A DNA stretch of 50,949 bases from an uncultured Bacilli bacterium (GTDB lineage Bacteria; Bacillota_I; Bacilli_A; RF39; UBA660): contig CANQHJ010000002.1 in NCBI GenBank assembly GCA_947623665.1, positions 1 to 50,949 on the forward strand, read 5' to 3'. Position 1 is the first letter of the stretch, and each line of letters begins with the position of its first letter. Under the pieces are notes generated by a model. It did not search any database, was not told the DNA's origin, and was given only the letters and a program-made list of their open reading frames with translations. Position numbers and translations under genes: made by a program. This document shows, in pieces, positions 23,806 through 45,629 of this stretch.

Positions 23806-24442
23806 AAAAAGAGTACAAAAGAGTCAAATTTTATTACTTGGCTCTTTACTTATATTTTTAGGTGGTATATCTTTATCTTATAACTTTATTAAAAGTTTAA
23901 AAGAAGATATTTTTGAAGAAATGAAACAGTTAATGGTTCAAGATAGACCATCTATACAGAATGTAAATAGTAATAATATTCCTATTACATCTGAACAAAC
24001 TGATGACGGTAGTAGTAATAATGTCGGAAGAACTGAAAATTTTGATAAATATTTGGGGATTTTGGAAATACCAAAAATAGGGTTGAAAAAAGGATTTTAC
24101 AATGTCGATTCAAGATATAATTCGATACAATATAATGTAACAGTAATACAAGGTTCTACTTTTCCAGATGTGGCGGGTGGTAATCTTATGTTAATGGCCC
24201 ACTCGGGTACTGCTTATATATCTTATTTTAGGTATTTATATAAACTTCAAGTAGGAGATATGGCATATGTAACTTATGGTGGTAATAAATATCAGTATAA
24301 GATTGTAAATATTTATAATGTCGATAAAACTGGTTCAGTTACTGTTGAAAGAAATTTTGACATTACTACACTAACCTTGATTACTTGTACTTATAAAGAT
24401 GATACTAAACAAACAGTTTATATTGCTGAATTAGTACAATAA
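23780..24442 (+). CDS. Sortase-family transpeptidase
   Basis: N-terminal TM anchor, His motif LMAHSG and catalytic Cys motif TLITCT. The start is uncertain (GTG 23756 or ATG 23780; both overlap the adhesin 3' end). Confidence 0.8.
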   Translation: MLTQQNKNRKRVQKSQILLLGSLLIFLGGISLSYNFIKSLKEDIFEEMKQLMVQDRPSIQNVNSNNIPITSEQTDDGSSNNVGRTENFDKYLGILEIPKIGLKKGFYNVDSRYNSIQYNVTVIQGSTFPDVAGGNLMLMAHSGTAYISYFRYLYKLQVGDMAYVTYGGNKYQYKIVNIYNVDKTGSVTVERNFDITTLTLITCTYKDDTKQTVYIAELVQ

Positions 24443-28523: not shown

Positions 28524-28552
28524 AGAAGCAATTTTAATGGTTGCTTCTTTTT
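28524..28552. terminator. Bidirectional terminator between mgtE and the LCP gene
   Basis: AGAAGCAA (28524-28531), 9-nt loop, TTGCTTCT (28541-28548), flanked by A- and T-runs. Confidence 0.6.
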
Positions 28553-30566
28553 ATGGTGTATCTTCTTCTCCTTTTTCATTATCATTTGTACATTGTGGAT
28601 TAGTAGGATCTGATCCACATACACATTCTTTACTTGTTTTATCTTTATAACATGAACATGCTGTGCTATTTGGATCAGTATCACAAGGAGTAGTTTTTAC
28701 TTCTTCTTTTGGCTCTGTTGTTGTTTTATTAGTGGTTGTATTGTTTGTACTTGTTCCTCCTGAAAGTGTTAGAGTAATAGTTCCAGCTTTATCTATTCTT
28801 TGGTTTGCTTTTCCTGATTGAGATACTACTGTTCCACCACTTCCTACAAATCTAACTTTTATTCCATATCTATTTGCAATAGATTGTGCAACTGATTGTG
28901 AATAACCAACGAAGTTTGGTACTAATGTATATTCTGTATCTTCTTTATATGGACCATATCCTATAATTTCTTTTTCATATGGTTCATTTATTGAGAAGTT
29001 AAGTTTCTTTATTGTTTTATGTTTTTTCTTTCCTAAGTTGATATACATTGCTTCTTTAATATCTTTTTTACTTTTCTTACTTGGTACGTAATCCCATAAT
29101 ACCATTTTCATTCTTTCATCATAAATCATTTGTCCACTACCTTGTAGGTATAGTTGTTGAATGCTTATAACATCTGAATCATCTTTAGCAAGGGACTTCT
29201 TTAATATATCTTTACCAATATTATAGAATGAAAGTATTTGTGAAGTAGTAAAGTTTGTATCTAAGTTAGCAGAGATTGTATTTAATATTTCTGTGAATTT
29301 TTTTACGCTTGAAATATTTTTCATTTTATTTATTAAAGCTTGAATAACTAATTGTTGATTTTGTCCACGATCTAAATCTCCACCTTGTAATTGTTTCCTG
29401 TTTCTAGCAAGTACTAAGGCTTCTTCACCATTTAAGTGTTGCATTCCTTCTTTTATACATACTTGTTTCCATCTATTAGAATCATCTGTACATAAATCAG
29501 CAGGAACTTCGGCATCAATTCCTCCAACAGCATCTACTAAGTGAACTAAACCTTTAAAGTTTATTTTTGCATAATAGTCGATTGTAATGTCAAAGTAATT
29601 TTCTATCGTTTTCATCATGCAATCTGTTCCATACCAAGCAGCATGTGTTATTTTATTTTCGGCATGATCATTAAAACAAGCAATTGGGACATAACTATCT
29701 CTTGGAATTGAAAGCATTGTTGCACTTAATGTTTTAGGATTAAATGTAACTAATATAAGTGAATCTCCATTAGCAACTGCGTTTTGTTCTAGACCTTCTT
29801 CTATTGAATCAATTCCCATTAATAAAATTGTAAATGGTTCTTTTAGGCTTTTTCCTGTTGACTTATTATCACTGTCTGATTTTTTCTCCATCTTTTTGGA
29901 TTTTTTAGCAATTACTTTTGTATCGGTTGCAATGTTTTCATATTCTGGAATAGATGAATACATTGAAACATAATCACTAGATATAAACATAGCATCTATT
30001 TCATCATTATATAAATCAGAAATCATTTGTGAATAGTCATCATATTTTTTTATATCATTTTCATCTTCTAATTTATTTTTTTCAATCATTTCTAATGGGA
30101 TAATATATCCATCAGGAGACTTTTTATCTTTTATCATTCCAATAGTAGCATCTTCTAAATCTTTAGCAGTGTTTGCTGCATTTGTACCTTTTACAACTAA
30201 ACTAGAAGAGTAGGTTACATATTTTTTATTAACACTGCTTATTAGATTATATCCATATGTTATTATTATTCCAATTGCAATGTAAATAATTGTAAGTAAA
30301 AGTATAAAGGTAAGTAAAACTCTATGTCTTTTTTTCTTTTTGTTTTTAAATATTAAGATAGTCTTTATTAAGAAGAATAAATCTAGTACTATGAATGCTC
30401 CTATTACTATGTATCTTATTAAATCTTCTATGCTATCTAATAAAAATAAATTGTATATTGCAAATACACTAGCAGCCAAATTTATTATTTGCAAAATTAA
30501 TATTAATATTTGATTTGTGGGTTTTTTAGGTTTTTTTACTTTTTTCTTTTGGTTTTCATTTTCCAT
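28551..30566 (-). CDS. LytR-CpsA-Psr (LCP) glycopolymer ligase with PASTA-like domain and Cys-rich tail
   Basis: Three N-terminal TMs. LCP motifs FTILLMGIDS, GDSLILVTFNP, SIPRDSYV and ARNRK..GGDLDRGQNQQ. The PASTA-like segment is VPNFVGYSQSVAQSIANRYGIKVRFVGSGGTVVSQSG...ITLTLS. Six Cys lie in the last about 45 aa. Confidence 0.85.
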   Translation of the reverse strand: MENENQKKKVKKPKKPTNQILILILQIINLAASVFAIYNLFLLDSIEDLIRYIVIGAFIVLDLFFLIKTILIFKNKKKKRHRVLLTFILLLTIIYIAIGIIITYGYNLISSVNKKYVTYSSSLVVKGTNAANTAKDLEDATIGMIKDKKSPDGYIIPLEMIEKNKLEDENDIKKYDDYSQMISDLYNDEIDAMFISSDYVSMYSSIPEYENIATDTKVIAKKSKKMEKKSDSDNKSTGKSLKEPFTILLMGIDSIEEGLEQNAVANGDSLILVTFNPKTLSATMLSIPRDSYVPIACFNDHAENKITHAAWYGTDCMMKTIENYFDITIDYYAKINFKGLVHLVDAVGGIDAEVPADLCTDDSNRWKQVCIKEGMQHLNGEEALVLARNRKQLQGGDLDRGQNQQLVIQALINKMKNISSVKKFTEILNTISANLDTNFTTSQILSFYNIGKDILKKSLAKDDSDVISIQQLYLQGSGQMIYDERMKMVLWDYVPSKKSKKDIKEAMYINLGKKKHKTIKKLNFSINEPYEKEIIGYGPYKEDTEYTLVPNFVGYSQSVAQSIANRYGIKVRFVGSGGTVVSQSGKANQRIDKAGTITLTLSGGTSTNNTTTNKTTTEPKEEVKTTPCDTDPNSTACSCYKDKTSKECVCGSDPTNPQCTNDNEKGEEDTP

Positions 30567-30691
30567 AATTTATAGGTCCTCCAAATTTTAAACTCTATAT
30601 AATTATATCGGAATAGGTAGTATTTTTCAATGTTTTTGTGTAATTTTTATAAAACATGTTATAATTAAAGAGAAGAGTGAAATTATCTTTA

Positions 30692-30720
30692 TTGCTTTAA
30701 TAGAAAATATGCTTTATAAT
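30692..30720 (+). promoter_or_regulatory. Sigma-A-type promoter of the glycopolymer operon
   Basis: TTGCTT (30692-30697), 17-nt spacer, TATAAT (30715-30720), 20 nt upstream of ATG 30740. Confidence 0.45.
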
Positions 30721-30739
30721 GAGTTTAGGGTGGTAAAAG

Positions 30740-31630
30740 ATGAAAAAAAGTAATAAGAAAATAGGTTTTATTATAATAAATTATAATGATTATGAGTCGA
30801 CTAAAAAATTACTTTGGAATATTAAAGATTATAAATGTTTAGATTTAATTGTTGTTGTGGATAATAATTCTACGGATGATAGTTTTAATAAACTTAAAAA
30901 GTTGAAAACTTTAAGTAATAAAAATATTGATTTTATTAAAACAAATGAAAATGGGGGATATGCAAAAGGACTTAATTTTGGAGCACGTTATGCTTTGAAG
31001 AAACTTAAAAAGGCTAATTTAATTTTTTCTAATTCGGATATTATCGTTAATAGTGAGGATGATATTAAAAAACTTTCAAGTGATATTAATAATCATGGTA
31101 TTGGTATTGGTGTAGTCGGACCTACTATAGTTGAGAGAGATAAATTAAATAGAGGTTGGAAGATGCCTAGTGTTAATGATGAGATTAAAGCAAATCTTCC
31201 ACTTATAAGTCGTTATTTTAATAGAAGTCGTTATTATAGTGATGATTATTATAAAGGACATAATAGTTTTGTTTCTGTTGTATCAGGTAGTTTTTTTATG
31301 GTTGATGGAGATTTACTTAAAGATATAGATTTTTTTGATGAGAATACTTTTCTTTATTATGAGGAAAATATTTTTTCTAAGAAAATTGAAAAAACTCATA
31401 GAAAAGTTGCGGTTGATAATGACGTTAGAGTTATACATAATCATTCAGTTACAATAGATAAGAATTTTAAAAGAGTAGAAAAATATAAAGAATTAAAGAA
31501 AAGCCAAAGATATTTTGTAAGTGAATATTTGGATGCTAGTGGTTTTCAATTGTTTTTGTTGGATGCTACTAATAAGTTATCACTTTTTGTTCTACATATT
31601 AGAAATTTATTTAGGAGGGATGTTAAATAA
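30740..31630 (+). CDS. Family 2 glycosyltransferase
   Basis: IIINYNDYEST, VVDNNSTDDS and the following acidic motifs are typical of GT-A/GT2. The stop overlaps the rmlA ATG (TAATG). Confidence 0.8.
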   Translation: MKKSNKKIGFIIINYNDYESTKKLLWNIKDYKCLDLIVVVDNNSTDDSFNKLKKLKTLSNKNIDFIKTNENGGYAKGLNFGARYALKKLKKANLIFSNSDIIVNSEDDIKKLSSDINNHGIGIGVVGPTIVERDKLNRGWKMPSVNDEIKANLPLISRYFNRSRYYSDDYYKGHNSFVSVVSGSFFMVDGDLLKDIDFFDENTFLYYEENIFSKKIEKTHRKVAVDNDVRVIHNHSVTIDKNFKRVEKYKELKKSQRYFVSEYLDASGFQLFLLDATNKLSLFVLHIRNLFRRDVK

Positions 31631-32508
31631 TGAAAGGTATAATTTTAGCTGGGGGTACTGGTTCAAGACTTTTTCCAATTACTGAGGGTGTTAGTAAACA
31701 ATTAATGCCTATTTATGATAAACCTATGATATTTTATCCTTTATCTACTTTAATGAGTGCTGGTATTAGGGATATTTTACTTATTTCAACAGAGGAGGAT
31801 CAAGCATCTTTTAAAAGACTTTTAGGAGATGGCTCTAAATTTGGTGTTAATATTAAATATGTTATTCAACCAAGTCCAGATGGTCTTGCTCAAGCATTTT
31901 TACTTGATAAGGAATTTATTAAAGATGAAAGTGTTGCAATGATACTTGGAGATAATATATTTTATGGTGCTAATATGACTGATAAATTATTAGAAGCAAA
32001 GACTAATGCTGAAAATGGTAAGGCTACTATTTTTGGATATCAAGTAAAAGATCCAGAAAGATTTGGAATTATGGAAATAAATAGTGAGGGTAAGGTTTTA
32101 AGTGTTGAAGAAAAACCAGAGCATCCTAAAAGTGATTATGCAATTACTGGTCTTTATTTTTATCCAAGTGATGTAGTTAGTCATGCGGAAAAAGTAGAAC
32201 CTTCTGCAAGAGGAGAATTAGAAATTACTACTTTAAATGATTTTTATTTACAAGAAGATAGATTACAAAGTGAGTTATTAGGAGATGGTTATACTTGGTA
32301 TGATACTGGTACTTTTGAGTCTATGAATGAGGCTAGTAATATGATTAAGTCTGTTGAGACACAGGGTAATAGGCTTATTTGTTCACCTGAGGTTATTGCG
32401 TATAATAATGGATGGTTAGATAAAAATATATTACAAAAAAGAGCAGAGCTTTTAAGTAAAAATACTTATGGTAAATATTTAGAAAATATTATAAAGAAAG
32501 GTCGTTAA
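31630..32508 (+). CDS. rfbA: Glucose-1-phosphate thymidylyltransferase
   Basis: ILAGGTGSRLFPIT and YDKPMIFYPL motifs. 292 aa. Confidence 0.92.
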   Translation: MKGIILAGGTGSRLFPITEGVSKQLMPIYDKPMIFYPLSTLMSAGIRDILLISTEEDQASFKRLLGDGSKFGVNIKYVIQPSPDGLAQAFLLDKEFIKDESVAMILGDNIFYGANMTDKLLEAKTNAENGKATIFGYQVKDPERFGIMEINSEGKVLSVEEKPEHPKSDYAITGLYFYPSDVVSHAEKVEPSARGELEITTLNDFYLQEDRLQSELLGDGYTWYDTGTFESMNEASNMIKSVETQGNRLICSPEVIAYNNGWLDKNILQKRAELLSKNTYGKYLENIIKKGR

Positions 32509-32509
32509 T

Positions 32510-33076
32510 ATGAAAAAGATTAATACTGATTTAAAAGATTGTTATATAATTGAACCTGATGTTTTTTTAGATGAAAGAGGATATTTTAGTGAGTATTATA
32601 GTACTTTAAAATTTGAAAATGATGAGTTAGATTCTATTTTCAATGGAGTTGTTCAAGCTAATAGGTCTAAGAGTTGTAAAGGGACTCTTCGTGGAATGCA
32701 TTTTCAAAAAGGAGAGCATGCTCAAGCTAAGTTAGTTGAATGTGTTAAGGGTGCTGTTTTGGATGTTGTTGTGGATATGAGAAGAGATTCTTATAGTTTT
32801 GGAAAATGGATAAGTGTAGAACTTACTGCTCTTAATCATAGACAACTTCTAGTACCTAAAGGATTTGCTCATGGATTTTTAACACTTGAGGATGATACTG
32901 TTTTTCAATATTTGGTAGATAGTTTATATAATCCTGATAGTGAAGGTGGATTTGCTTATAATGATAAAGAGGTAAATATTGATTGGCAGTTTGATAAGTA
33001 TGGAATAGATGAAGTTATTTTGTCTGATAAAGATAAAAGTAGGGGTAGTTTTTTGGAAAATAAAGATGATTGTTGA
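32510..33076 (+). CDS. rfbC: dTDP-4-dehydrorhamnose 3,5-epimerase
   Basis: Cupin-fold RmlC motifs DERGYF, LRGMHFQ, AKLV.CV.GAVLDVVVDMR and HGF. Confidence 0.9.
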   Translation: MKKINTDLKDCYIIEPDVFLDERGYFSEYYSTLKFENDELDSIFNGVVQANRSKSCKGTLRGMHFQKGEHAQAKLVECVKGAVLDVVVDMRRDSYSFGKWISVELTALNHRQLLVPKGFAHGFLTLEDDTVFQYLVDSLYNPDSEGGFAYNDKEVNIDWQFDKYGIDEVILSDKDKSRGSFLENKDDC

Positions 33077-33085
33077 GGAGAAATT

Positions 33086-34694
33086 ATGGCTAAAAAATAT
33101 AGAATTGCTCATGTAGGAACTTTTGATGTAGAAAATTATGGTGATTTGTTATTTCCTACAGTGTTAAAACATAATTTTTTGGATTATGAAATAGACCTTT
33201 TTTCACCCATAGGGGGGGGGTCAATTCTTACCAAATAAGGAAGATGTTTTTTCTATAAAGGATTTGGAAAAGAAACATTTGGAAAATAGATATGATGCTA
33301 TTGTGATAGGTGGAGGTAATTTAATAAGAACTGACTCTGTTGTTGCTTACACTTATGAAAAGTCTAATGATGTTTCTTTGAGTTTATGGGCTTTGCCTAC
33401 ATTAATAGGAAAAAAATATAATATACCAGTATTATATAATTGTCCTGGTGTATTAAGACAGTTTAAAAGATGTGAAAGAGAAGTAATAAAAGAAATATTT
33501 AAAGATGTAGATTATATTTCTGTTAGAGATGAAGATTCTAAGTTATTGTTAGAAGAATGTGGAGTTTCTTCTGTAAAAGTAGTGCCTGATACAGTTCTTA
33601 GTATTGATAATATTATAAAATATGAAGATACAAAGAGAATAAAAAAACAACTTGAAAAAGATAAGAAGATTCCTAAATTAGAAAATTATATTGTAATTCA
33701 ACATATTAGATTTAATTTAGATGATGAACATTATGTTAATGAGTTAAAGAAGTTAATGAATATAATTATTGAAGAGTATAATTATAATATTCTTCTGTTA
33801 CCTATTGGATATGTTCATTTTGATATAGAAGCAATGGAGAAACTTAATGATTTAGAAAATGAAAATATTAAGATGATAAAAAATAAACTTAATCCATTAG
33901 AAATGTTGAGTGTGATTGCAAATAGTTGTGGTTATATTGGAACAAGTATGCATGGTGAAGTTACTGCTTATGCTTATGGTAAACCTATATTGATGATTAA
34001 TACAGATAATATGGTTAAAAGAAGTGGATTAGTAAAAATTATTAATAGAGAAAATATAGAAGTAAATAATATCGATGAACTAATAGAAATATTTAGAGAA
34101 CATTTTTTTGATGAGGTAAATAAAGATGATAAAAATGAGATTAATAAAAAAATAAAAACTCATTTTAAAAATATTAGAGATATTATAGAATCTGGAAAAA
34201 GGAAAAATTATTTTAATGTAGAATTTGATATTTTAAAAAGTGCTTTTAATGGTTTTGAATTAAAAGGTGAAGTATATGATACTATATCCGTTTATTTAGA
34301 TAATGGATGTGGATATTCTGAAGAATTAAAAAAAGAAATAAAGGTAGATAATTGTAATAAAATAAAATTTAATATGAGTTTTTCTGATGAGGTAAGACAA
34401 ATACGTATTGATCCTTTTGAAGGAGTTATAGTTAAAGTTAATAAAATAGAAATTAAATCTAATGATAAAATATTAGATTATAAGATACCTGATATGTATT
34501 TAGATAAATATATTCTTTCTGTTGATCCAAATATTTATGTAGATATAGACTTTTCTGTTAAAGATATTGATGTAGAAATGGATATTGAAATAGTAGATTA
34601 TAGTTCTTTAGTTAATTTATATAAAGACGAAATAAAAAATAAAGATAATGTAGATAATAATAGATCTATAATAAGAAAAATATTTAAAAGATAA
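33086..34694 (+). pseudogene. Polysaccharide pyruvyl transferase family gene, frame-shifted at a G9 tract (OFF phase, or a sequencing error)
   Basis: ATG 33086 lies behind a strong GAGGAG RBS and opens a 50-aa reading frame (..ENYGDLLFP..SPIGGG) that stops at 33236-33238. The +1 frame continues without a stop from the G-tract into ORF 33264-34694 (GGGQFLPNKEDVFSIKDLEKKHLENRYDAIVIGGGNLI..., ISVRDEDS). A G8 tract would give one ORF of about 535 aa. Confidence 0.7.
33212..33220 (+). repeat. Homopolymeric G9 tract inside a coding region
   Basis: Counted directly: a + 9 g at 33211-33220. It is by far the longest G/C run I saw in this AT-rich window. Confidence 0.9.
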
Positions 34695-34711
34695 ATAAAG
34701 GAGGTTGTTAG

Positions 34712-35560
34712 ATGAAGTTTTTTATAACTGGTAGTGGAGGGCAACTAGGATATGATATTATTTTAGAACTTGAAAAAAGAGGATATAAAGATATTGTCGC
34801 ACCTACTTTAGAGGAGTTAGATATTACTAATAGAGATAAAGTTATTGAGATGATTACCTTGGTAAAGCCTGATGTTATTTTTCATTGTGCTGCATATACT
34901 GCGGTTGATAGTGCTGAGGATAATAAAGATATTTGTTATAAGGTTAATGTTGATGGTACTAAGAATATAGTGGATGCTAGTAAAATGGTAGATGCTAAAA
35001 TTATTTTTATGAGTACTGATTATATTTTTGATGGAGAAAAAAGTGGAGAATATGTAGAGGCAGATATTCCTAATCCTAAGAATGTTTATGGAGAAAGTAA
35101 AGTGTTAGGAGAAGAGATAGTAAGAAGTAATCCTAAACATTTTATTACTCGTATTTCTTGGGTGTTTGGTAAGAATGGTAAAAATTTTATTAAGACTATG
35201 TTAGAACTTTCTAAAACAAAAACAGAGTTGAATGTAGTATCTGATCAAATAGGTTCTCCTACTTATACAGTTGATTTGGCTAAAGTATTAGTTGATATGT
35301 CTTTTTCTTCTTTGTATGGTACTTATAATGTTACTAATAGTGGTTATTGTTCTTGGGCAGAGTTTGCAGATGAGATATTTAAGAAAGCTGGTAAGGATGT
35401 ATTAGTTAATCATATTAATAGTGAAGAGTATCCACAAAAGGCATATCGTCCTAGAAATTCTAAGCTTAATAAAGAAAAACTTAAAAATAATTTTTCTTTG
35501 CTTCCTACTTGGCAAGATGCAGTGGAGAAATATTTAAAAGAAATAGAGGTGATAAAATGA
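34712..35560 (+). CDS. rfbD: dTDP-4-dehydrorhamnose reductase
   Basis: Rossmann motif ITGSGGQLG, catalytic YGESK, 282 aa. The stop overlaps the rfbB ATG (ATGA). Confidence 0.9.
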   Translation: MKFFITGSGGQLGYDIILELEKRGYKDIVAPTLEELDITNRDKVIEMITLVKPDVIFHCAAYTAVDSAEDNKDICYKVNVDGTKNIVDASKMVDAKIIFMSTDYIFDGEKSGEYVEADIPNPKNVYGESKVLGEEIVRSNPKHFITRISWVFGKNGKNFIKTMLELSKTKTELNVVSDQIGSPTYTVDLAKVLVDMSFSSLYGTYNVTNSGYCSWAEFADEIFKKAGKDVLVNHINSEEYPQKAYRPRNSKLNKEKLKNNFSLLPTWQDAVEKYLKEIEVIK

Positions 35561-36561
35561 AATTTTTAATAACTGGAGGAGCAGGTTTTATTGGAAGTAA
35601 CTATTTACATTATGTTACAGAAAAATATAATGATGATTATTTTGTTTGTATAGACGCTTTAACTTATGCAGGTAATTATAATAATATTAAATCATTAGAA
35701 GAAAAGGATAATTTTAAATTTATAAAAGCAGATATTACTGATCGTGATGTTATATATCAAATATTTGAAGAAGAAAAGTTTGATTATGTCGTTAATTTTG
35801 CAGCAGAGTCTCATGTGGATAATTCTATTAAAAATCCAGAAGTGTTTTTGACTACTAATATTATTGGTACTGCAGTATTAATGGATGCTTGTTTAAAATA
35901 TGGTATTAAGAGATTTCATCAAATTTCAACAGATGAGGTTTATGGAGATTTACCACTTGATAGATTAGATTTATTATTTAAAGAAGATACTCCACTTCAT
36001 ACATCAAGTCCCTATTCATCTAGTAAAGCAAGTGCTGATTTATTAGCTATGGCATATCACAGAACTTTTAATCTTCCTGTTACAATAAGTCGTTGTTCTA
36101 ATAATTATGGTCCTTATCAATTTCCAGAGAAATTAATTCCTGTTGTTATATCAAAAGCATTAAAAAATGAGAAAGTTCCTGTTTATGGTAAGGGTGAAAA
36201 TGTAAGAGATTGGATACATGTTCATGATCATAATGTTGGTGTTGATATGATTGTAAGAAATGGTCGTGATGGAGAAGTTTATAATTTAGGAGGACATTCT
36301 GAAAGATGTAATTTGGATGTTGTAAAAACTATACTTCATCATCTTGGTAAGAGTGAGGATTTAATAGAGTTTGTAGGAGATAGACCAGGACATGATTTAC
36401 GTTATGCAATAGATTCTTCTAAAGTAGAAAAGGAACTTGGTTGGTCTTTAAGTTATAATTTTGAAGATGGGATTAAAGAGACTGTTGATTGGTATTTAAA
36501 TAATGAAGATTGGATAAATAATATTTTATCTGGTGAATATAAAAATAGTTATAAAAATTAA
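35557..36561 (+). CDS. rfbB: dTDP-glucose 4,6-dehydratase
   Basis: ITGGAGFIGSN, catalytic YSSSKASAD, and PGHDLRYAID near the C-terminus. ATG 35557 is the correct start, not the track start at 35509. Confidence 0.92.
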   Translation: MKFLITGGAGFIGSNYLHYVTEKYNDDYFVCIDALTYAGNYNNIKSLEEKDNFKFIKADITDRDVIYQIFEEEKFDYVVNFAAESHVDNSIKNPEVFLTTNIIGTAVLMDACLKYGIKRFHQISTDEVYGDLPLDRLDLLFKEDTPLHTSSPYSSSKASADLLAMAYHRTFNLPVTISRCSNNYGPYQFPEKLIPVVISKALKNEKVPVYGKGENVRDWIHVHDHNVGVDMIVRNGRDGEVYNLGGHSERCNLDVVKTILHHLGKSEDLIEFVGDRPGHDLRYAIDSSKVEKELGWSLSYNFEDGIKETVDWYLNNEDWINNILSGEYKNSYKN

Positions 36562-36564
36562 GTG

Positions 36565-36591
36565 ATATCCACAATTTTCTGTGGATATTTT
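36565..36591 (+). terminator. Rho-independent terminator after rfbB
   Basis: ATATCCACA (36565-36573), loop ATTTTC, TGTGGATAT (36580-36588), then TTT. Confidence 0.55.
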
Positions 36592-36663
36592 AAAATGTTG
36601 TAGATTTTAGGTAATTTATTTGTTAAAATGATTTATGTAGGCAGTAAAAAAGGTAGTGATTAT

Positions 36664-37776
36664 ATGGCAGTTCAAAATAATAGAAAAGTTAAAGTCTCTA
36701 CTAATCAAGTTTCTAATAGCAAAAAGAATAATACTGTTAGTAAAACAATGGGAAAAATAGATACAAAAAAAGTTTTTCCTAAAAAAAAGGATTCAGTAGA
36801 GGTAGAAGAAATTAGTGTAGAAGAAGCGTTATCTACTAGAGTTAAAAGATATCAAAAGTTTTATGATAATAGTACTAATAAAAACATTGAAGAAAAAAAG
36901 GGAGATAATAACCTATCTATTACTAAACAACAAAAATTTAATTTTGAAAATACATCTATAGAAGATGAGATGGATACTAGTTTTACAGATGAAAATAAAA
37001 AAAAGAAAGTATCTAATAAAAAGGAAAATGTTAGTGTAAAAATTGAAGAGATTCCAATAAAAAGAGAATATATTCAAAAACATGAAGATTATTTTACAAT
37101 AACAACATTATTTTTGACTGTAGTGATAGTTTTTATGGGTGTGTTTTTAATATATCATTTTGGAACTTTTGATCATGATAAAGTAAAAGTGGTTACTAAA
37201 GTTAAGAAGGTGGCAGTAGTTCCTGAAAATATTGTGTTTTTAGGAGACTCTATTACTAATTTTTATGATTTGGATAAATTTTATAAAAATAAAAACGTTG
37301 TTAATAGTGGAGTTAATGGAAATATGACTACTGATATATTAGATGATTTGAAAACAAGAGTTTATCGATATAATCCATCTCATGTGATATTATTAATAGG
37401 TACAAATGATTTAGCTGATGGAAGAGGTAAAGAAGAAATTGTTGATAATATAAAAAAAATTATTAAGGAAATTAAGAAAAATGTTCCTAATGCAAAAATA
37501 TATTTGGAAAGTATTTATCCTATTAATGATAGTGATGATGATAAGATAAATCATAATACAGTTGATGAAAGAAAAAATGATGATATTAAAGATATAAATA
37601 AAGATTTAAAGAAGTATGCAAATGATGCAAAAATTAAATATATTGATTTGTATGATAAGCTTGCAGATGATGATGGTAAGTTAAAAATTGATTATACTAA
37701 AGATGGATTACATTTAAGTGATAAAGGTTATGATGAGGTTACTTTTTATATTAAGAAAATATTAAAAGATGAGTAG
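36664..37776 (+). CDS. Membrane-anchored SGNH/GDSL hydrolase
   Basis: Lys-rich about 150-aa N-terminal region, one TM (ITTLFLTVVIVFMGVFLIY), then SGNH blocks FLGDSITN, LIGTNDL and DGLHLS. ATG 36664 lies behind AAAAGGTAGTGA. Confidence 0.75.
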   Translation: MAVQNNRKVKVSTNQVSNSKKNNTVSKTMGKIDTKKVFPKKKDSVEVEEISVEEALSTRVKRYQKFYDNSTNKNIEEKKGDNNLSITKQQKFNFENTSIEDEMDTSFTDENKKKKVSNKKENVSVKIEEIPIKREYIQKHEDYFTITTLFLTVVIVFMGVFLIYHFGTFDHDKVKVVTKVKKVAVVPENIVFLGDSITNFYDLDKFYKNKNVVNSGVNGNMTTDILDDLKTRVYRYNPSHVILLIGTNDLADGRGKEEIVDNIKKIIKEIKKNVPNAKIYLESIYPINDSDDDKINHNTVDERKNDDIKDINKDLKKYANDAKIKYIDLYDKLADDDGKLKIDYTKDGLHLSDKGYDEVTFYIKKILKDE

Positions 37777-37802
37777 AAAAGATATTCATCTTTTATTTTT
37801 TT
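37777..37802 (+). terminator. Rho-independent terminator
   Basis: AAAAGAT, loop ATTC, ATCTTTT, then ATTTTTTT. Confidence 0.45.
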
Positions 37803-37808
37803 GAATAA

Positions 37809-37838
37809 TTGCATTACTAACTTGTTTCATGATATAAT
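37809..37838 (+). promoter_or_regulatory. Sigma-A-type promoter with extended -10 for the ABC-transporter/GT operon
   Basis: TTGCAT (37809-37814), 18-nt spacer ending in TGA, TATAAT (37833-37838). Confidence 0.5.
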
Positions 37839-37877
37839 TATTAAAGAGTTGTTTAATTAAAGAGGTGATTAAATCTT

Positions 37878-38633
37878 ATGAGAAAACATGATAGAAAACA
37901 TGAAAATCAGAATGCTATTGTAGTTACTAATGTTTATAAAAAGTTTAAATTATTTTATGATAAGCCAAATACTTTAAAAGAACGTTTAGTATTTTGGAAT
38001 AAAACTAAAGTAAATTATCATGAGGTTTTAAAAAATATTAACTTGAAAATAAAAAGAGGGGAGACTGTTGCTTTAATAGGTGTTAATGGTAGTGGAAAAA
38101 GTACACTTTTAAAGTTGATGACTAAAATAATTTATCCAACAACAGGGGAGATTAAGACTTATGGAAAATTAACATCACTTCTAGAGTTGGGAGCAGGTTT
38201 TCATCCTGATTTTACAGGACGTGAAAACATTTATTTTAATGCTTCTATTTTTGGCCTTAGTGCAGCAGAAATTGATAAAAGAGTTCAAGATATAATTGAT
38301 TTTTCCGAACTTGGAGATTATATTGATACTCCTGTTAGGACGTATTCATCTGGAATGTATATGCGACTTGCTTTTTCGGTTGCAATAAATGTTGATGCAG
38401 AGATACTATTAATTGATGAAATACTTGCAGTTGGAGATCAACACTTTCAAGAAAAATGTTTTGCTAAATTACAAGAACTTAAAAAGAGTGATAAAACTAT
38501 TGTAATTGTTAGTCATAGCTTAAATTCAGTAAAAAAATTATGTGATAGAGCTGTTTGGATTTATGAAGGTGAAGTTAGAATGGATGGAAAAGCTGATAAA
38601 GTAATAGATGAATATTTGAAAGTGTGTGGGTAG
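37878..38633 (+). CDS. Polysaccharide/teichoic-acid export ABC transporter, ATP-binding subunit (TagH/Wzt/RgpD-like)
   Basis: Walker A GVNGSGKST, signature YSSGMYMRL, Walker B ILLIDE. 251 aa, with no C-terminal carbohydrate-binding extension. Confidence 0.85.
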   Translation: MRKHDRKHENQNAIVVTNVYKKFKLFYDKPNTLKERLVFWNKTKVNYHEVLKNINLKIKRGETVALIGVNGSGKSTLLKLMTKIIYPTTGEIKTYGKLTSLLELGAGFHPDFTGRENIYFNASIFGLSAAEIDKRVQDIIDFSELGDYIDTPVRTYSSGMYMRLAFSVAINVDAEILLIDEILAVGDQHFQEKCFAKLQELKKSDKTIVIVSHSLNSVKKLCDRAVWIYEGEVRMDGKADKVIDEYLKVCG

Positions 38634-38642
38634 GTGATTGTA

Positions 38643-39413
38643 ATGTTAAGAAATCTTTATAATTATAGACAATTACTTAAAAGTAATGTAAAAAAAGAAA
38701 TTCGTGGTAAATATAAAGGGTCTTTTTTGGGGGTTATTTGGTCATTTGTTAATCCTTTATTACAAGTTTTGGTTTATGCAATAGTATTTCCTTTTATTAT
38801 GAGAAATACTCAAGAAAATTATGTTGTATTTTTGATTATAGGAATTTTACCATGGACTTGGTTTGTTACTTCAATATCTCAAGGAACATCTTGTATTTTA
38901 GCTAATCAAGGTATTATTAAAAAAGTATATTTTCCAAGAGAAATATTGCCTATATCTGTTGTAACTAGTGGATTAATTAATTTTTTAATTTCATGTATTA
39001 TAATATTTATATTTTTATTATTTAGTGGTATAGGATTTAGTTTTTATATAGTATTTTTACCACTTGTTATTATAATTCAGTATATTTTTTCTTTAGGTGT
39101 TTTGCTTATTACTAGTGCAATAGATGTATATATTAGGGATGCTGAATATATTATTAATTTTTTTGTAAATATGTTATTTTATGCTACACCTATTTTGTAT
39201 TCTCCTGATATTTTTGCAGGTTCACCTATTAGTATGATAATAAAAGCAAATCCTCTTGCTATAATTATTACTGGTTATAGAGATGCTTTATTTTATAAGA
39301 CTATGCCTAATTTAAGTTCACTTTTTATAGCTTTTGTAGGTAGTTTAATATTATTGTTTTTAGGAATAGCTATATTTAAAAAATTAGAAAAAGGTTTTGC
39401 AGAGGAGGTATAG
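38643..39413 (+). CDS. ABC-2-type polysaccharide export permease (TagG/Wzm/RgpC-like)
   Basis: About 6 TM helices. The N-terminal region ...YRQLLKSNVKKEIRGKYKGSFLGVIWSF.NPLL is typical of ABC2_membrane. The start is ATG 38643 or GTG 38634. Confidence 0.85.
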   Translation: MLRNLYNYRQLLKSNVKKEIRGKYKGSFLGVIWSFVNPLLQVLVYAIVFPFIMRNTQENYVVFLIIGILPWTWFVTSISQGTSCILANQGIIKKVYFPREILPISVVTSGLINFLISCIIIFIFLLFSGIGFSFYIVFLPLVIIIQYIFSLGVLLITSAIDVYIRDAEYIINFFVNMLFYATPILYSPDIFAGSPISMIIKANPLAIIITGYRDALFYKTMPNLSSLFIAFVGSLILLFLGIAIFKKLEKGFAEEV

Positions 39414-39414
39414 T

Positions 39415-41613
39415 ATGAGTAAATGTGATGTTATTGTTCCTATATATAATGCATACGATTGTGTTATTGAGTGTATCGAGTCAATAATTAAAAATACTAA
39501 GTTTGATGGTAATAAGTTAATATTAATTGATGATAAAAGTAGTGATGAAAAAGTATTACCTAAACTAGAAGAATATGAAAAAAAATATGATTTTATTAAA
39601 CTTTTGAAGAATGAAGAAAATTTAGGTTTTGTTGGTACTGTTAACAAAGGTATGAAGTATTCAAAAAATGATGTAATACTTTTAAATAGTGATACTGAGG
39701 TAACAGATGGTTGGTTAGAAAAAATAGTTAAGTGTGCATATAGTGAAAAAATGATAGCTACAGTAACACCACTTTCTAATAATGCTACTTTAGTTTCTGT
39801 GCCAGTGGGGTTGCAAGAAAATGATTTACCTAATAATATGACGCTTGCAGAGTATTCTAAATTGATAGAAGATGTTGCATATAATGAAAATCAGCAGTTG
39901 CCAACTGCTCATGGATTTTGTATGTTTATTAAAAGAGAAGTTTTAGACATTGTTGGTTATTTTGATGTAGAGGCTTTTGGTCGTGGATATGGAGAGGAAA
40001 ATGATTTTTCTTTTAGATGTTTAGATTATGGGTATAAAAATATATTGTGTGATAATGTAATAATTTATCATAAAGAAAAACAATCATTTTCAGAAGAGAG
40101 AGAAAAATTAGTTAAAGAAAATTTGAAGACACTTCATGATAGATATCCTGTATATTCTAGAAGAATTGAACTTTGGTGTGAGAATTTTCCTATAAAAAAG
40201 ATATGTGAAAATATTGATTATCAGATAAAACTTCATGATAGAAAGAATATTTTAATATTAATACATGATTGGGAAGATGCTAAAAATAGTGTTGGAGGAA
40301 CAACACTACATGTATGGGATTTAATACAAAATTTAAGAAAGTATTATAACTTTCATGTTTTAGCGCCCTCAGATGGTATTTATAAATTAGTTTCATATTT
40401 TGAAAATGATGAGAAAATGGTTAAATTTAATCCAGTTGATAATTATGGTATGTTTTCTTTTTATAATAGGCAATATAGAGATATGATAGATAAAATAATT
40501 GAGGGATTTAGAATTGATACTGTTCATATTCATCATATGTTAGGACATTTTTTTGATGTTGTTGATGTGTGTAAAAAAAGAGGTGTTTATTCGATGATTA
40601 CTCTTCATGATTTTTATTCATTATGTCCTTCTATTAATATGTTATATAAGATGGAGAGGTATTGTCCTAGAATGAAAGAGAAAAACTGTGGTGAATGTTT
40701 AGTATATAAAACAGGTATAAAAAATAATATAGTTGATAATTGGCATAAAGTATGGGCAGAAAATTTATCTCAATTTGATAAAATAGTTGTTCCATCTAGT
40801 GATACTAAAAAAGAAATTAATAATGTTTATAAAGATATAAAAATTGATGTTATGGAACATGGTTTAAATTTAGAGAAAAGCTCTTATAGAAGTTCTATAA
40901 ATAATACAGAAGAGTTTAATGTTGCTTTTGTTGGTGTTATGGCTGCTCATAAGGGAGGTAAAATTTTACAATCATTAATTAAACATACTAAAAGTAAAAA
41001 TATTAAATATCATTTATTTGGAACTAGTGAATTTAAGGAATTAGAAAATAATAAGTCAAATTATGTATATCATGGTAGATATAAAAGAGAAGATTTGCCT
41101 AATTTACTTGCAGAAAATAAAATTAATTTAGTTTGTAATTTTTCTATTTGGGCTGAGACTTATTCATATACACTTACAGAAGAGATTGCCAGTGGTGTTC
41201 CGGTTTTAAGCTTTGATATTGGTGCAGTTGGTGATAGAATAAAAAAATATAAATTTGGATATGTTATGAATGTTGATAGTAGTACAGAAGAAATACTTTC
41301 TAAAATAGATAGTATATTTAGTGATAAAGATGCATATCAAAAGGTCATTGAAAATATTGATAAATATAAAATTAAGACTGTTTTAGAGATGTGTAGTGAA
41401 TATGATGATATTTATAAAAGTATTAAGATGATTAAAGTTAATAAAGATAATTCTAAAATATTAAGAAGTATAATTGAAGATAATTATGAAGTGTTAGAGA
41501 CTGTTAATTCTGCTGAGACTGCATGGATATTAAATTCTTTAAAATGGAAAATAGTTTCTAAAATTAAAGTACCAGAATTTGTAAAAAAAGTTGCTCGAAA
41601 GATTGTGAGGTAA
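39415..41613 (+). CDS. Two-domain glycosyltransferase (N-terminal GT2 + C-terminal GT4/GT-B) with C-terminal amphipathic helix
   Basis: The GT2 part has VIVPIYNAY, LIDDKSSD and LLNSDTEV. The GT-B part has ETYSYTLTEEIASGVPVLSFDIGAVGDR. The tail is SLKWKIVSKIKVPEFVKKVARKIVR. ATG 39415 lies behind GAGGAGG. Confidence 0.75.
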   Translation: MSKCDVIVPIYNAYDCVIECIESIIKNTKFDGNKLILIDDKSSDEKVLPKLEEYEKKYDFIKLLKNEENLGFVGTVNKGMKYSKNDVILLNSDTEVTDGWLEKIVKCAYSEKMIATVTPLSNNATLVSVPVGLQENDLPNNMTLAEYSKLIEDVAYNENQQLPTAHGFCMFIKREVLDIVGYFDVEAFGRGYGEENDFSFRCLDYGYKNILCDNVIIYHKEKQSFSEEREKLVKENLKTLHDRYPVYSRRIELWCENFPIKKICENIDYQIKLHDRKNILILIHDWEDAKNSVGGTTLHVWDLIQNLRKYYNFHVLAPSDGIYKLVSYFENDEKMVKFNPVDNYGMFSFYNRQYRDMIDKIIEGFRIDTVHIHHMLGHFFDVVDVCKKRGVYSMITLHDFYSLCPSINMLYKMERYCPRMKEKNCGECLVYKTGIKNNIVDNWHKVWAENLSQFDKIVVPSSDTKKEINNVYKDIKIDVMEHGLNLEKSSYRSSINNTEEFNVAFVGVMAAHKGGKILQSLIKHTKSKNIKYHLFGTSEFKELENNKSNYVYHGRYKREDLPNLLAENKINLVCNFSIWAETYSYTLTEEIASGVPVLSFDIGAVGDRIKKYKFGYVMNVDSSTEEILSKIDSIFSDKDAYQKVIENIDKYKIKTVLEMCSEYDDIYKSIKMIKVNKDNSKILRSIIEDNYEVLETVNSAETAWILNSLKWKIVSKIKVPEFVKKVARKIVR

Positions 41614-41617
41614 TAGT

Positions 41618-42493
41618 ATGAAGATAGTAGGTGTAGTAGTTTTATACAATCCAGAAGATAATGTTATTAATAATATTAAATCTTATTTAGGTTTAATAGA
41701 TAAATTGTATGTTGTTGATAATACTCCTATTCCTAACAATAATATTAATGTTTTTAAAGATAAAAAGATTAAGTATATTTCTAATAATGGTAATAAAGGA
41801 ATTGCTTATGCTTTGAATGAGGGTGCAAAAGAAGCTATTAAAGATAAAGCTGATTGGCTTCTTACTATGGATCAAGATAGTTCATTTAAAGAAGGATCTT
41901 TGGAAAAAATGATAAACTTTTTACAGGAGATAAAGAAAAATAAATTATTAGAAGAGGTATTAGGTCTTAGTTATGATAAAATAGGTGTTTTATCAGTATG
42001 TCATAGGACTGAATTTAATAAAGGAGAAAAACTAACAGGTATTAGTTATCCACTTGTTGTAATGACTTCTGGTAATCTTATTAATTTAGATGTTTATAAA
42101 AAAGTAGGTGGATTTAAAGATTGGTTGTTTATAGATGCTGTTGATTTTGATTATTGCTTAAATGTTCAAAAACATAAATATGAAGTAGTGCAAATGAATA
42201 CAGCTGAATTAAAACATAATTTAGGAAATATTAAGAGAATAGAGTTTTTAGGTAGAACGATGTTTGTAACTAATCATAGTGCTACTAGAAGATATTATAT
42301 AACAAGGAATAGACATTATTTATATGATTTATATCAGGAGGACTTTTTAGATTATTGTGCTATTGAACTTGGTAGAACTAGAAAAGAATTGATTAAAATT
42401 ATTCTTTTTGAAGATAATAAATTAGAAAAAATAAAAGCAATATATAAAGGATATAAAGATTATAAGAAAGGTATTAAAGGTGGGTTAAAATGA
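41618..42493 (+). CDS. Family 2 glycosyltransferase (rhamnosyltransferase-like)
   Basis: VVLYNP, VVDNTP and TMDQDS motifs, as in WbbL/RgpB-type GT2 enzymes. Confidence 0.75.
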   Translation: MKIVGVVVLYNPEDNVINNIKSYLGLIDKLYVVDNTPIPNNNINVFKDKKIKYISNNGNKGIAYALNEGAKEAIKDKADWLLTMDQDSSFKEGSLEKMINFLQEIKKNKLLEEVLGLSYDKIGVLSVCHRTEFNKGEKLTGISYPLVVMTSGNLINLDVYKKVGGFKDWLFIDAVDFDYCLNVQKHKYEVVQMNTAELKHNLGNIKRIEFLGRTMFVTNHSATRRYYITRNRHYLYDLYQEDFLDYCAIELGRTRKELIKIILFEDNKLEKIKAIYKGYKDYKKGIKGGLK

Positions 42494-44562: not shown

Positions 44563-44571
44563 GAGGTTTAT

Positions 44572-45297
44572 GTGAAAAATAAAGTTTTGTTGATAATACC
44601 TGCTTATAATGAAGAAGCAAATATTTTGAATACTTATAATAATATTATGAAATATAATAAGAATAATAAAGAAAAGTTAGATGTTATAGTTATTAATGAT
44701 TGCTCAACGGATAGAACTAGTGAAATTTGCCATAATAATAATATACCTGTTATTGATTTAATTCATAATTTGGGAATTGGTGGTGCTGTTCAGACTGGAT
44801 ATAAATATGCTTATAAGAATGGATATGATATTGCAGTTCAATTTGATGGTGATGGACAACATAATGTTAATTATGTTAAAAATATTATTGAACCTATAAA
44901 AAGTAAAGAGGCTGATTTTGTAATTGGTTCTAGATTTGTATCAGATATTGATACATTTAAAACTTCTTTTGCAAGAAGAATAGGTATAAGAATAATTTCT
45001 TTCTTTTTAAAAATTACTACTGGATATAAAATATATGATGTAACATCAGGATTTAGAGCTTGTTCTAAAGAGATTATTAAAGATTTTTCTATATCATATC
45101 CACCTGAATATCCAGAACCTGTTACAAATGCAGAACTTCTTAGAAAAAAATTTGTAATAAAAGAAGTTCCTGTTGAAATGCAAGAGAGAACAGCAGGAGT
45201 ATCATCTATTGGTTCTTGGAAAAATATATATTATATGGTAAATGTTTGTTTATCACTTTTAGTTATAAGGATAAGGAGGTATAAAAGATGCCCTTAA
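44572..45297 (+). CDS. Polyprenyl-phosphate glycosyltransferase (GT2; GtrB/CsbB/GacI-like)
   Basis: IIPAYNEE, VINDCSTDRT, FDGDGQH and a C-terminal TM, matching the DPM1/GtrB architecture. GTG start behind AGGAGG. Confidence 0.8.
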   Translation: MKNKVLLIIPAYNEEANILNTYNNIMKYNKNNKEKLDVIVINDCSTDRTSEICHNNNIPVIDLIHNLGIGGAVQTGYKYAYKNGYDIAVQFDGDGQHNVNYVKNIIEPIKSKEADFVIGSRFVSDIDTFKTSFARRIGIRIISFFLKITTGYKIYDVTSGFRACSKEIIKDFSISYPPEYPEPVTNAELLRKKFVIKEVPVEMQERTAGVSSIGSWKNIYYMVNVCLSLLVIRIRRYKRCP

Positions 45298-45629
45298 ATT
45301 TGATAATTGCTTTAATAACTTTTTCAGTTGTTTTATTTATAATTACTACAATAATATTAAAAAAAGGAAGAATGCCTGAAAAATACTCTTTATTATGGTA
45401 TTTTATATCTTTAGTAATCTTTATGGTTGCTGTGTTTCCTAATACATTTGCTTTTATAACAGAAAAAGCTGGATTTCAAACTATGTCTAATATGATTATT
45501 GGAATAGTTCTTGTTTTACTTACATTTTTGACAATGGCTTTAACTATTATAGTTTCTGGTCAGAAGAAAAAAACAACACTTTTGATTCAAGAAATATCAC
45601 TTTTAAAAAGTGAAATTAAGAAAAAATAA
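45288..45629 (+). CDS. Small 3-4 TM membrane protein (DUF2304/GacJ-like partner of the preceding GT2)
   Basis: 113 aa. It overlaps the GT2 stop by 10 nt behind AGGAGG. Size, topology and position match the DUF2304 proteins that follow GtrB-like GT2 genes. Confidence 0.6.
   Translation: MPLNLIIALITFSVVLFIITTIILKKGRMPEKYSLLWYFISLVIFMVAVFPNTFAFITEKAGFQTMSNMIIGIVLVLLTFLTMALTIIVSGQKKKTTLLIQEISLLKSEIKKK

Follow-up and report, generated by a model that had tools for sequence, protein, structure and literature searches.

Most documented cases of switching of gene expression by simple-sequence repeats come from a small number of Gram-negative pathogens, and surface variation in gut Firmicutes is mostly ascribed to invertible promoters. 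Homopolymer switches described in Firmicutes include the A8/A9 tract of Bacillus subtilis swrA and the poly-A of Listeria monocytogenes inlA. As in the case dealt with here, gain or loss of one base in a homopolymer within the coding sequence truncates the protein in a Gram-positive; with swrA and inlA the change is reversible, with mismatch repair present. They differ from the present case in that their poly-A is common in AT-rich genomes, whereas the tract here is poly-G against a strong codon bias, and in their targets, modification of a wall polysaccharide being the predicted one here. Other parallels are the poly-G/C loci of Campylobacter jejuni (and of Neisseria, Haemophilus and Helicobacter), where, as here, a rare run of 8 or 9 Gs lies early in the ORF for a surface-glycan enzyme in a low-GC genome, one-base changes switch translation, and the tract is polymorphic among near-identical strains. 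Campylobacter phase variation is described as relying on hypermutable G/C homopolymeric tracts (PMC8355987). In contrast to such loci, the present tract belongs to an uncultured Firmicute of low GC content and gut type, it is the only one seen in 51 kb, and the target is a putative pyruvyl transferase. In a comparison of SufB, the nearest named hits are MAGs labelled 'Bacilli bacterium' and 'Firmicutes bacterium', at 78% identity.

With regard to the enzyme, CsaB of Bacillus anthracis and Paenibacillus alvei pyruvylates the secondary cell-wall polymer for anchoring of SLH-domain proteins. With regard to the genetic setting, the side-chain decorations specified in streptococcal Rgp and group A carbohydrate (gac) loci are GlcNAc, Glc and glycerol phosphate, and we know of no description of pyruvylation, or of a switch based on simple-sequence repeats, in these loci. 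A literature search turned up no pyruvyl transferase described as being under simple-sequence-repeat control, the sole co-mention being in an Akkermansia capsule paper in which a pyruvyltransferase merely appears in the locus table (PMC13343947). The mechanism itself is already known, and no new one is opened by what follows. The reading favored here, to which we give a probability of about 0.7 on the evidence of sequence, is that of a slipped-strand contingency locus toggling pyruvylation of what is most likely a rhamnose-containing wall polysaccharide.

The G tract and the frames it joins

The window, meaning the whole stretch of DNA that was analyzed, comprises 50,949 bp with 26% GC. A scan for runs finds in it a single run of G or C longer than 5, a G9 at 33212..33220 on the + strand that occupies codons 43-45 (Gly-Gly-Gly), 8% into its ORF, and that is the candidate slippage site. 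Runs of at least 9 Gs would be expected 0.006 times in the window with independent bases and 0.010 times under a first-order Markov model, in agreement with the contention of the earlier note that such a run is improbable by chance. Its scrambled counterpart is GGTGGAGGT.

The gene as a whole extends over 33086..34694 (+), frameshifted here and stop-free at G8, at which it specifies 535 aa. Its ATG at 33086 is preceded, 5 nt upstream, by a Shine-Dalgarno GAGGAG (33075..33080, +) that is the same in three metagenome contigs dealt with below (L001, L003 and L004). Ribosomes remaining in frame 0 would make a 50-aa N-terminal fragment, starting MAKKYRIAHVGTFDVENYGDLLFP, from an ORF at 33086..33238 (+) whose TAA terminator (33236-33238) starts 16 nt past the tract. 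The +1 frame is open on the same strand from 33213 to 34694, is closed just 5′ of this region by a TAG (33210-33212), and specifies, up to its stop at 34692-34694, residues 43-535 of the uninterrupted protein; from its first possible start codon onwards, this frame is what is listed as ORF 33264-34694. The ribosome-binding site, start codon, tract, terminator and open +1 frame had all been described in the earlier note and are confirmed, as is its proposal that loss of one G or gain of two would fuse the two ORFs. Translation by tract length gives 535 aa at G8, 50 aa at G9, 57 aa at G10 and 536 aa at G11, so that G8 and G11 are in frame and G9 is out of frame, with both wrong frames stopping within 0-12 codons. 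A 1-nt change at the tract merges reading frames, with an increase from 53 to 538 codons, and among the A/T runs of at least 7 and the G/C runs of at least 5 in the window this is the sole run at which such a change does so.

Two tract lengths in each of two species

Near-identical relatives of the window sequence carry one or other of two tract lengths. Two metagenome contigs, L001 and L003, have G8 and an unbroken gene, the product of which has 535 aa on L003 (allele P0121) and 519 aa on L001 (allele P0001), while a third, L004, has G9 with the gene split as in the window. The tally for the window species is accordingly G9 twice and G8 twice. Around the tract these sequences are 99-100% identical (99.4-100% in the flanks). 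Over a shared 834 nt, no difference other than that at the tract itself separates the window, L001 and L003, and because of this a haplotype test for recurrent mutation is uninformative. L004 has two private SNPs in the 834 nt, and its 50-aa OFF product differs from that of the window by one D-to-E change. A search of JGI metagenomes with the exact DNA pattern of tract plus flanks gave 0 matches, and P0001 had only a spurious 32% match in the genome collection, to a Bartonella MAG.

In a sister species the orthologue, with 55% amino acid identity, is at a different genomic position. At the same codons its tract reads GTG GGG GGG GGT, which puts G9 in frame (the four loci read, L005-L008), the product having 548 aa with nine Gs and 46 aa with eight. 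The sequence of the G8 product (46 aa, ending SPVGGVIF) was predicted first and then looked up in the protein collection by exact match, and it was found on L011 and L012, two contigs additional to those above, each of which is 100% identical to L005 over ~1 kb outside the tract. The sister species thus has G9 on the four loci read and G8 on two, a tally in which the ON count is biased because it was an exact match to the full-length protein that brought up contigs of the L005-L008 type. The protein collection yielded no products of G6, G7 or G10 for the window species and none of G7, G10 or G11 for the sister species, and G8 and G9 are the only lengths observed across both. Comparison of tract length in relatives, for which the earlier note had called, therefore reveals polymorphism in both species. 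The occurrence of G8 and G9 among near-identical relatives lends support to its suggestion of a candidate phase-variation switch in a wall-glycopolymer locus.

Loss of function, miscalling and recoding

Of the alternatives, the one that survives best, though it is still unlikely, is ordinary recent loss of function, with the tract a mutational hot spot, G9 a young pseudogene, and no reversible switch being maintained. Since mutation is fast in any G8 run, alleles in the OFF state would segregate even in the absence of selection for switching. That both species retain the tract is also statistically not compelling; this was considered as a sign of selection and found to be a weak one, since 71% of the codons for conserved residues are identical anyway. 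Set against this is the persistence of the tract in spite of the rarity of its codons. GGG accounts for just 5.2% of the 783 glycine codons in 36 window ORFs, and the 45 other Gly-Gly dicodons there include no GGG-GGG. The conserved FSPxGG is written with GGT, GGA or GGC in 19 other low-GC family members, all 19 of which lack the tract, and ~100 kb of their loci contains no G/C run of 7 or more. Composition or codon usage does not explain the tract, which employs the rarest codon pair and which AT mutation pressure would be expected to erode. Also against simple loss are the OFF alleles in both species and the fact that the tract occupies corresponding codons in both, with the proteins so diverged and the genes at different loci. 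Nor has the split gene decayed further. In the window the 476 codons downstream are open, and comparison of the corrected window gene with the intact L003 allele reveals 5 synonymous and 2 non-synonymous codon differences (small numbers). A tract fixed at G9 with continuing decay, which the earlier note had considered as the mark of a plain pseudogene, is not what is seen, given the existence of intact alleles.

It is distinctly improbable that there is in reality one fixed tract length, with the other arising from homopolymer miscalls or from slippage in library PCR in low-coverage assemblies, i.e. a sequencing or assembly artefact. The earlier note had raised an invariant G8 in this connection, and the relatives are not all G8. 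Several features lend the artefact some plausibility. The k-mer coverage of L004, L011 and L012 is 2.19, 2.16 and 1.57, respectively (it is ~3 for L001 and L003), and the private SNPs of L004 are also pertinent. L004, L011 and L012 are short contigs, and at such coverage a single-read error can survive assembly. However, these two lengths are met again in 4 of ~10 independent contigs from two species, the 50.9-kb window differs from L001 and L003 within their 834 nt at the tract only, and nothing else differs in ~2 kb of L011 and L012. In a control comparison, A/T runs of 8-9 nt in sister-species contigs changed length in 0 of ~40 comparisons (and one A8 in the window species was unchanged), as against 4 of 8 comparisons for the G tract, a control that is imperfect because G/C homopolymers err more than A/T on most Illumina instruments (PMC8002175). 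A common Illumina artefact is substitution of the base after a homopolymer (PMC8002175); the T that follows the tract is retained in both G8 and G9 alleles, so the difference between them is a true 1-nt indel rather than the usual substitution of this type. In addition, no other homopolymer splits an ORF in the 51 kb, which argues against an error-prone long-read assembly.

Recoding, with a ribosomal +1 shift or RNA polymerase slippage on the run keeping G9 expressed and the gene leaky or constitutively on, is plausible from general knowledge (peptidyl-tRNA-Gly can re-pair perfectly one base downstream on a run of Gs, and long homopolymers permit transcriptional slippage) but is very improbable here, as the frameshifted arrangement is not conserved, the in-frame alleles of L001, L003 and L005-L008 in the same and the sister species exclude a fixed programmed frameshift, and the 0-frame stop lies 16 nt away and does not serve as a slow codon at the shift site. 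Recoding would be compatible with switching at the DNA level, and would then only make the OFF state leaky.

The enzyme, its locus and what switching may mean

Corrected to G8, the protein matches Pfam PF04230 (PS_pyruv_trans) at 94.3 bits (cut-off 25.3; E=1.6e-26) over the full profile, 1-280/280, with its residues 17-308. Since the match covers the profile end to end, the frameshift is inside one domain, and the claim of the earlier note that the run of Gs splits a pyruvyl transferase gene is borne out at the level of family assignment. From this membership and the gene context, we infer that the protein has polysaccharide pyruvyl transferase activity and what its acceptor would be. The catalytic region (aa 17-308; 33134..34010, +) is predicted to have a GT-B-like two-lobe fold. 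An AlphaFold2 model of the protein has a pLDDT of 88, and its top Foldseek matches in the PDB are GT-B-fold UDP-GlcNAc 2-epimerases and WaaA (E ~1e-10), with no solved pyruvyl transferase among the top 50 or found by sequence. In the family alignment the invariant A8, G11, F13, N17, G19, D20 and S40 are all upstream of the frameshift.

The second domain, a C-terminal beta-sandwich at aa ~395-505 (34269..34601, +) with the motif IRIDPxEG, is delimited by alignment and by AlphaFold2 (pLDDT 87), and is conserved in the closest family members. It has no Pfam match even at E=1, no sequence match in the PDB and no structural analogue there, the best Foldseek hit of a separate, confident model of the domain having an E of 5e-3 and a TM below 0.45. 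The JGI name 'LPS transport ATP-binding protein' on some homologues gave rise to the idea of a Wzt_C-type glycan-end-binding module, and this was set aside with no support from Pfam, PDB sequence or Foldseek. In some homologues the pyruvyl transferase is fused to RgpF (PF05045).

CsaB shares membership of the PF04230 superfamily, and there as here (in prediction) a cytoplasmic enzyme acts on a wall glycopolymer. The earlier note had leaned on the CsaB/SLH paradigm, and that part found no support. An orthologue of CsaB is ruled out by a TIGR03609 score of 59.4 bits against a cut-off of 213.1, and no SLH domain was found in the window ORFs scanned, in which ChW repeats are the only wall-binding modules seen. 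The protein here also differs from CsaB in its predicted extra 200-aa helical linker plus beta-sandwich, and its gene differs in being within rml genes in a rhamnan-type locus with an ABC transporter.

That locus, as delimited by Pfam scans, occupies 28551..45629 on both strands. The gene for the pyruvyl transferase directly adjoins rmlA (31630-32508) and rmlC (32510-33076) upstream and rmlD (34712-35560) and rmlB (35557-36561) downstream, all on the + strand in an operon-like array. The assignments are from the ORFs together with Pfam matches to NTP_transferase and dTDP_sugar_isom on the identical L001 genes for rmlA and rmlC, and to RmlD_sub_bind and GDP_Man_Dehyd/Epimerase on L001 and L003 for rmlD and rmlB, respectively. 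rmlD has its own ribosome-binding site, AAAGGAGG. No terminator-like site was found on the + strand at 30400-36560, and a promoter scan gave 54 promoter-like sites where 55 were expected. Further Pfam matches are to an LCP ligase (28551-30566, - strand), GT2 genes (starts at 30740, 41618 and 44572), a GDSL esterase (36628), ABC_tran (37878), ABC2_membrane (38634), GT2+GT4 (39397), DUF7657/DUF7654 (42490) and DUF2304 (45288). With rmlABCD, an ABC-2 transporter pair, several GT2/GT4 genes and an LCP ligase clustered as in the streptococcal Rgp and gac loci, the locus is by its gene content of the ABC-transporter-dependent rhamnose wall-polysaccharide type (Rgp/GAC). It also shares with them a GT2+DUF2304 pair, which we take to resemble GacI/GacJ.

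On the contingency-locus reading, the tract at codons 43-45 would be a hypermutable simple-sequence repeat within the gene for a soluble two-domain enzyme, and slipped-strand mispairing at replication would alter it by one G. G8 (or G11) would be the ON state, with full enzyme, and G9 the OFF state, with translation ending after 50 aa. Everything past the first beta-alpha unit would be missing from this short product, and the invariant N-terminal residues from any product of a restart further downstream. When ON, the enzyme would place a pyruvate ketal, derived from PEP, on what is most likely a lipid-linked rhamnose-containing wall polysaccharide, and would do so on the cytoplasmic face before the polymer is exported by the ABC transporter and attached by the LCP ligase. 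With the gene OFF, it would be without the negative charge of the pyruvate. Slippage as the cause, and reversibility, are likewise what we infer. Switching could have effects on the binding of phage, immune components or wall proteins, and the consequences for the surface or for phage receptors envisaged in the earlier note may follow.

A bolder version, which we regard as unlikely, is that a selected contingency locus is retained in at least two species of a low-GC lineage of uncultured Firmicutes and involves an undescribed class of two-domain enzyme, with its beta-sandwich lacking a structural analogue, that caps or decorates rhamnan before ABC export. If so, switching would alter the charge of the polymer and possibly chain termination. 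An OFF-state effect on rmlD and rmlB is conceivable because in the window species the gene sits between rmlC and rmlD. The 1.45 kb of untranslated OFF mRNA could lower expression of these two genes, coupling modification to rhamnose supply.

From a practical perspective, prediction of the out-of-frame peptide followed by exact look-up can reveal alleles of both states in metagenome catalogues without recourse to reads. The analysis also flags a conserved, structurally unmatched C-terminal domain in a subfamily of pyruvyl transferases. For the organism, the sequences found in natural samples from the two species suggest that in an uncultured low-GC Firmicute a wall modification conferring charge is toggled by means of a poly-G tract and, if this is confirmed, pyruvylation would join the glycan decorations that are under stochastic control.

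The divided reading frame and its product

On the + strand, a GAGGAG at 33075-33080 precedes an ATG at 33086, from which the frame-0 product starts MAKKYRIAHVGTFDVENYGDLLFP, enters a run of nine Gs (G9, 33212-33220) and ends at a TAA (33236-33238) after 50 aa; the +1 frame, following a TAG at 33210-33212, is open from 33213 to 34694. In all of this the sequence reads as the earlier note had it. By computed translation, removal of one G yields a single protein of 535 aa and addition of two yields 536 aa, so that the fusion proposed for G8 or G11 stands, with the size of 535 aa applying to the former. In a window with a GC content of 26%, the expected number of G runs this long or longer is 0.006 to 0.01, agreeing with the improbability already claimed, and there is no other G/C run of more than 5 in the whole window; the tract can hardly be put down to chance. 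Among the window homopolymers scanned (A/T runs of at least 7 and G/C runs of at least 5), it is the sole one at which a 1-nt change merges frames.

With one G removed, the corrected protein matches the entire Pfam PS_pyruv_trans profile (PF04230; profile 1-280 of 280, aa 17-308, 94.3 bits with a cut-off of 25.3), and the frameshift therefore divides one domain in two. A hydrophobic segment is absent (maximum Kyte-Doolittle 19-residue mean 1.05), and from this hydropathy profile the enzyme is predicted to be soluble and cytoplasmic. The AlphaFold2 model, from a 32-sequence alignment, is confident (pLDDT 88) and has an N-terminal GT-B-like two-lobe fold joined by a helical linker to a C-terminal beta-sandwich; top Foldseek matches to the model are UDP-GlcNAc 2-epimerases and WaaA (E about 1e-10). 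The beta-sandwich, placed by model and alignment at 34269-34601 (columns about 430-560 of the family alignment, A4), has invariant R-x-D-x-x-E (IRIDPxEG) and D-P motifs shared by about 20 family members. Pfam has no match for it and, when it is modelled alone (pLDDT 87), no structural analogue was found in the PDB; neither result supports a role as a Wzt_C-like glycan-end reader, and the domain may merit separate study. Fusion of some family members to RgpF (PF05045) fits a tie to rhamnan synthesis. One intact allele of the same species, on metagenome contig L001, carries a 48-nt in-frame deletion (window 34586-34633; L001 2967-2971), not present in contig L003 or the window, by which the poorly conserved C-terminal tail loses 16 aa (EIVDYSSLVNLYKDEI) and the protein is left with 519 aa instead of 535.

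Tract lengths in two species

A search with the corrected protein retrieved an intact protein, P0001, 97% identical, which shares its cluster with the intact 535-aa P0121 and with the 471-aa fragment from the window itself; the 50-aa fragment of the window falls in a cluster with another protein of that length, called in a different assembly. When the contigs were fetched, the comparison of tract length in relatives that had been advised returned both states: G8 with the gene intact in L001 and L003, and G9 with the gene split in L004 as in the window. Over the 834 nt common to all four, the window, L001 and L003 differ only by one G, and L004 adds two SNPs of its own. All four keep the T that follows the tract, making the length difference a true indel; the Illumina artefact typical near homopolymers is substitution of the next base (PMC8002175). 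Between the window and L001, nucleotide identity is 99.4% from rmlA to the pyruvyl transferase gene and drops to about 96% from about 34629 onward, at the 3′ end of the gene and through rmlD/rmlB, and L003 is 96.6% identical to the window overall with the differences mostly downstream, which suggests a recombination breakpoint near the gene end.

The next relative, P0002 (55% identical; found in MAG GCA_947631155.1 and in several metagenome assemblies whose accessions belong to the same series), represents a sister species where the gene is elsewhere, at the end of a glycosyltransferase cluster adjoining yabG, veg and spoVG. At the same codons its contigs L005-L008 have GTG GGG GGG GGT, a G9 that is in frame; a different preceding codon is why the in-frame length is G8 in the window species and G9 here. 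Products for other tract lengths were computed from L005 and submitted to exact-sequence look-up. That predicted for G8 (46 aa, ending SPVGGVIF) is present on two further contigs, L011 and L012, both identical (100%) to L005 across about 1 kb except for the missing G; the look-up gave no exact match for the G7, G10 and G11 products. Natural samples of each species, then, contain a tract length that keeps the frame and another that breaks it. Gene-disrupting deletions outside homopolymers also occur in sister-species contigs (loci L005 14736-16463 and 12229-13017): 17 nt in L006 (L005:15685) and a gap of about 45 nt in L007 (L005:15633-15679), each splitting the same 575-aa ABC transporter gene, and 10 nt in L008 (L005:12350) in a yabG-like Peptidase_U57 gene. 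These are either real decay or low-coverage assembly artefact.

Slippage and the other explanations

The sequences show how the frames relate, which domain is encoded, and that ON (in-frame) and OFF (out-of-frame) alleles occur in nature; the best explanation is that slipped-strand mispairing in the coding poly-G tract toggles the pyruvyl transferase, a change to G8 putting it ON and one to G9 OFF in the window species. The 50-aa OFF product cannot be functional, and restart at TTG 33264 or 33279 leaves out the invariant A8, G11, F13, N17, G19, D20 and S40. Tract length changed in four of eight comparisons; A/T runs of 8-9 nt in sister-species contigs showed no length change in about 40, nor did the single A8 compared for the window species.

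That the gene is merely a young pseudogene at a mutational hot spot is unlikely, having to accommodate OFF alleles in both species and the keeping of disfavoured codons in both, two points that speak for a maintained switch. In 36 window ORFs, GGG is 5.2% of 783 glycine codons, and none of 45 other Gly-Gly pairs is GGG-GGG. The family alignment (FSPxGG) shows almost no variation at the two tract glycines, and 19 other low-GC members from metagenomes encode both as GGT, GGA or GGC, with no G/C run of at least 7 in about 100 kb of their loci; rarity of GGG and the lack of a G run in these relatives mark the tract as lineage-specific and made of disfavoured codons. Its retention in both species is weak evidence for selection, since at conserved residues the two share 71% of their codons anyway. 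The further decay of the frame by which the earlier note would have recognized a pseudogene is absent: the split gene differs from the intact L003 allele by five synonymous and two non-synonymous codon changes (binomial p about 0.01 for this split, if about three quarters are expected to be non-synonymous without constraint), and is not decaying.

Sequencing or assembly artefact is a still poorer prospect. K-mer coverage reaches only 1.6-2.2 in three variant contigs, and on most Illumina machines errors are more frequent in G/C than in A/T runs (PMC8002175), but the same two lengths recur in two species, the flanks are clean with the following T retained, and the window differs from the better-covered L001 and L003. 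Ribosomal or transcriptional recoding, though it could leave the OFF state leaky, is very improbable, with in-frame alleles excluding a fixed programmed frameshift.

Slippage here would work as it does at the poly-G contingency loci known from Campylobacter jejuni and from Neisseria, Haemophilus and Helicobacter (PMC8355987, PMC2831843). By its sequence-level features the tract fits that class, the defining trait of which is switching within a clone. A literature search found no report of a repeat-controlled pyruvyl transferase. The feature is real; the class of switch is already known.

The wall-polysaccharide locus and proposed consequences of switching

The gene is flanked by rmlA-rmlC and rmlD-rmlB at gaps of 9-17 nt, and no terminator-like sites were found on the + strand of this block. 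The OFF state could conceivably act in a polar manner on rmlD/rmlB, but not as a general rule, because the sister-species gene is not within an rml operon. Surrounding genes, for an LCP ligase, several GT2/GT4 glycosyltransferases, an ABC-2 permease and ATPase, a GDSL esterase, a DUF7657/DUF7654 membrane protein and a GT2+DUF2304 pair, form what is probably an ABC-transporter-dependent, rhamnose-type wall-polysaccharide locus. The LCP-family protein (671 aa; 28551-30566, minus strand) has an unusual domain mix: LytR_cpsA_psr, PASTA and a region resembling a phosphonate-type substrate-binding protein. Further surface-adhesin loci are indicated at 11771-14874 and 22540-24442, with genes for two neighbouring BspA-type leucine-rich-repeat proteins and for a possible thioester-domain protein (TED, weak match), the last overlapping a sortase gene. 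SufB, for which the nearest named matches, at 78% identity, are MAGs labelled 'Bacilli bacterium' and 'Firmicutes bacterium', places the organism among uncultured low-GC Firmicutes.

The phase-variation proposal of the earlier note holds for frames and alleles and fails in its CsaB/SLH parallel: this PF04230 member is not a CsaB orthologue (59.4 bits, cut-off 213.1), none of the scanned window ORFs gave an SLH match, and the SLH-anchoring paradigm does not transfer. Directly downstream of the locus, 45753-49937 encodes a 1394-aa candidate for wall binding, which has 14 ChW repeats (PF07538, E=1.4e-166) and matches GH25 muramidase weakly; the polymer of this locus could be what it binds.

The 240-aa GT2 and 110-aa DUF2304 membrane protein are encoded by overlapping genes (44572-45297 and 45288-45629), and with L005 5656-6716 and L009 1572-2619 the pair is beside this pyruvyl transferase family at three different loci. 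We take it to resemble GacI/GacJ, a lipid-linked sugar donor synthase and activator; if so, it would imply a second, extracytoplasmic side-chain decoration. The acceptor and phenotype of the pyruvyl transferase, like the reversibility and rate of its switching, we infer. Going by its family and gene surroundings, the enzyme of ON cells would work on the cytoplasmic side and attach a pyruvate ketal to the rhamnose polymer while this is still lipid-linked, ahead of ABC export and LCP-mediated attachment, and in OFF cells the polymer would be unpyruvylated and less anionic.
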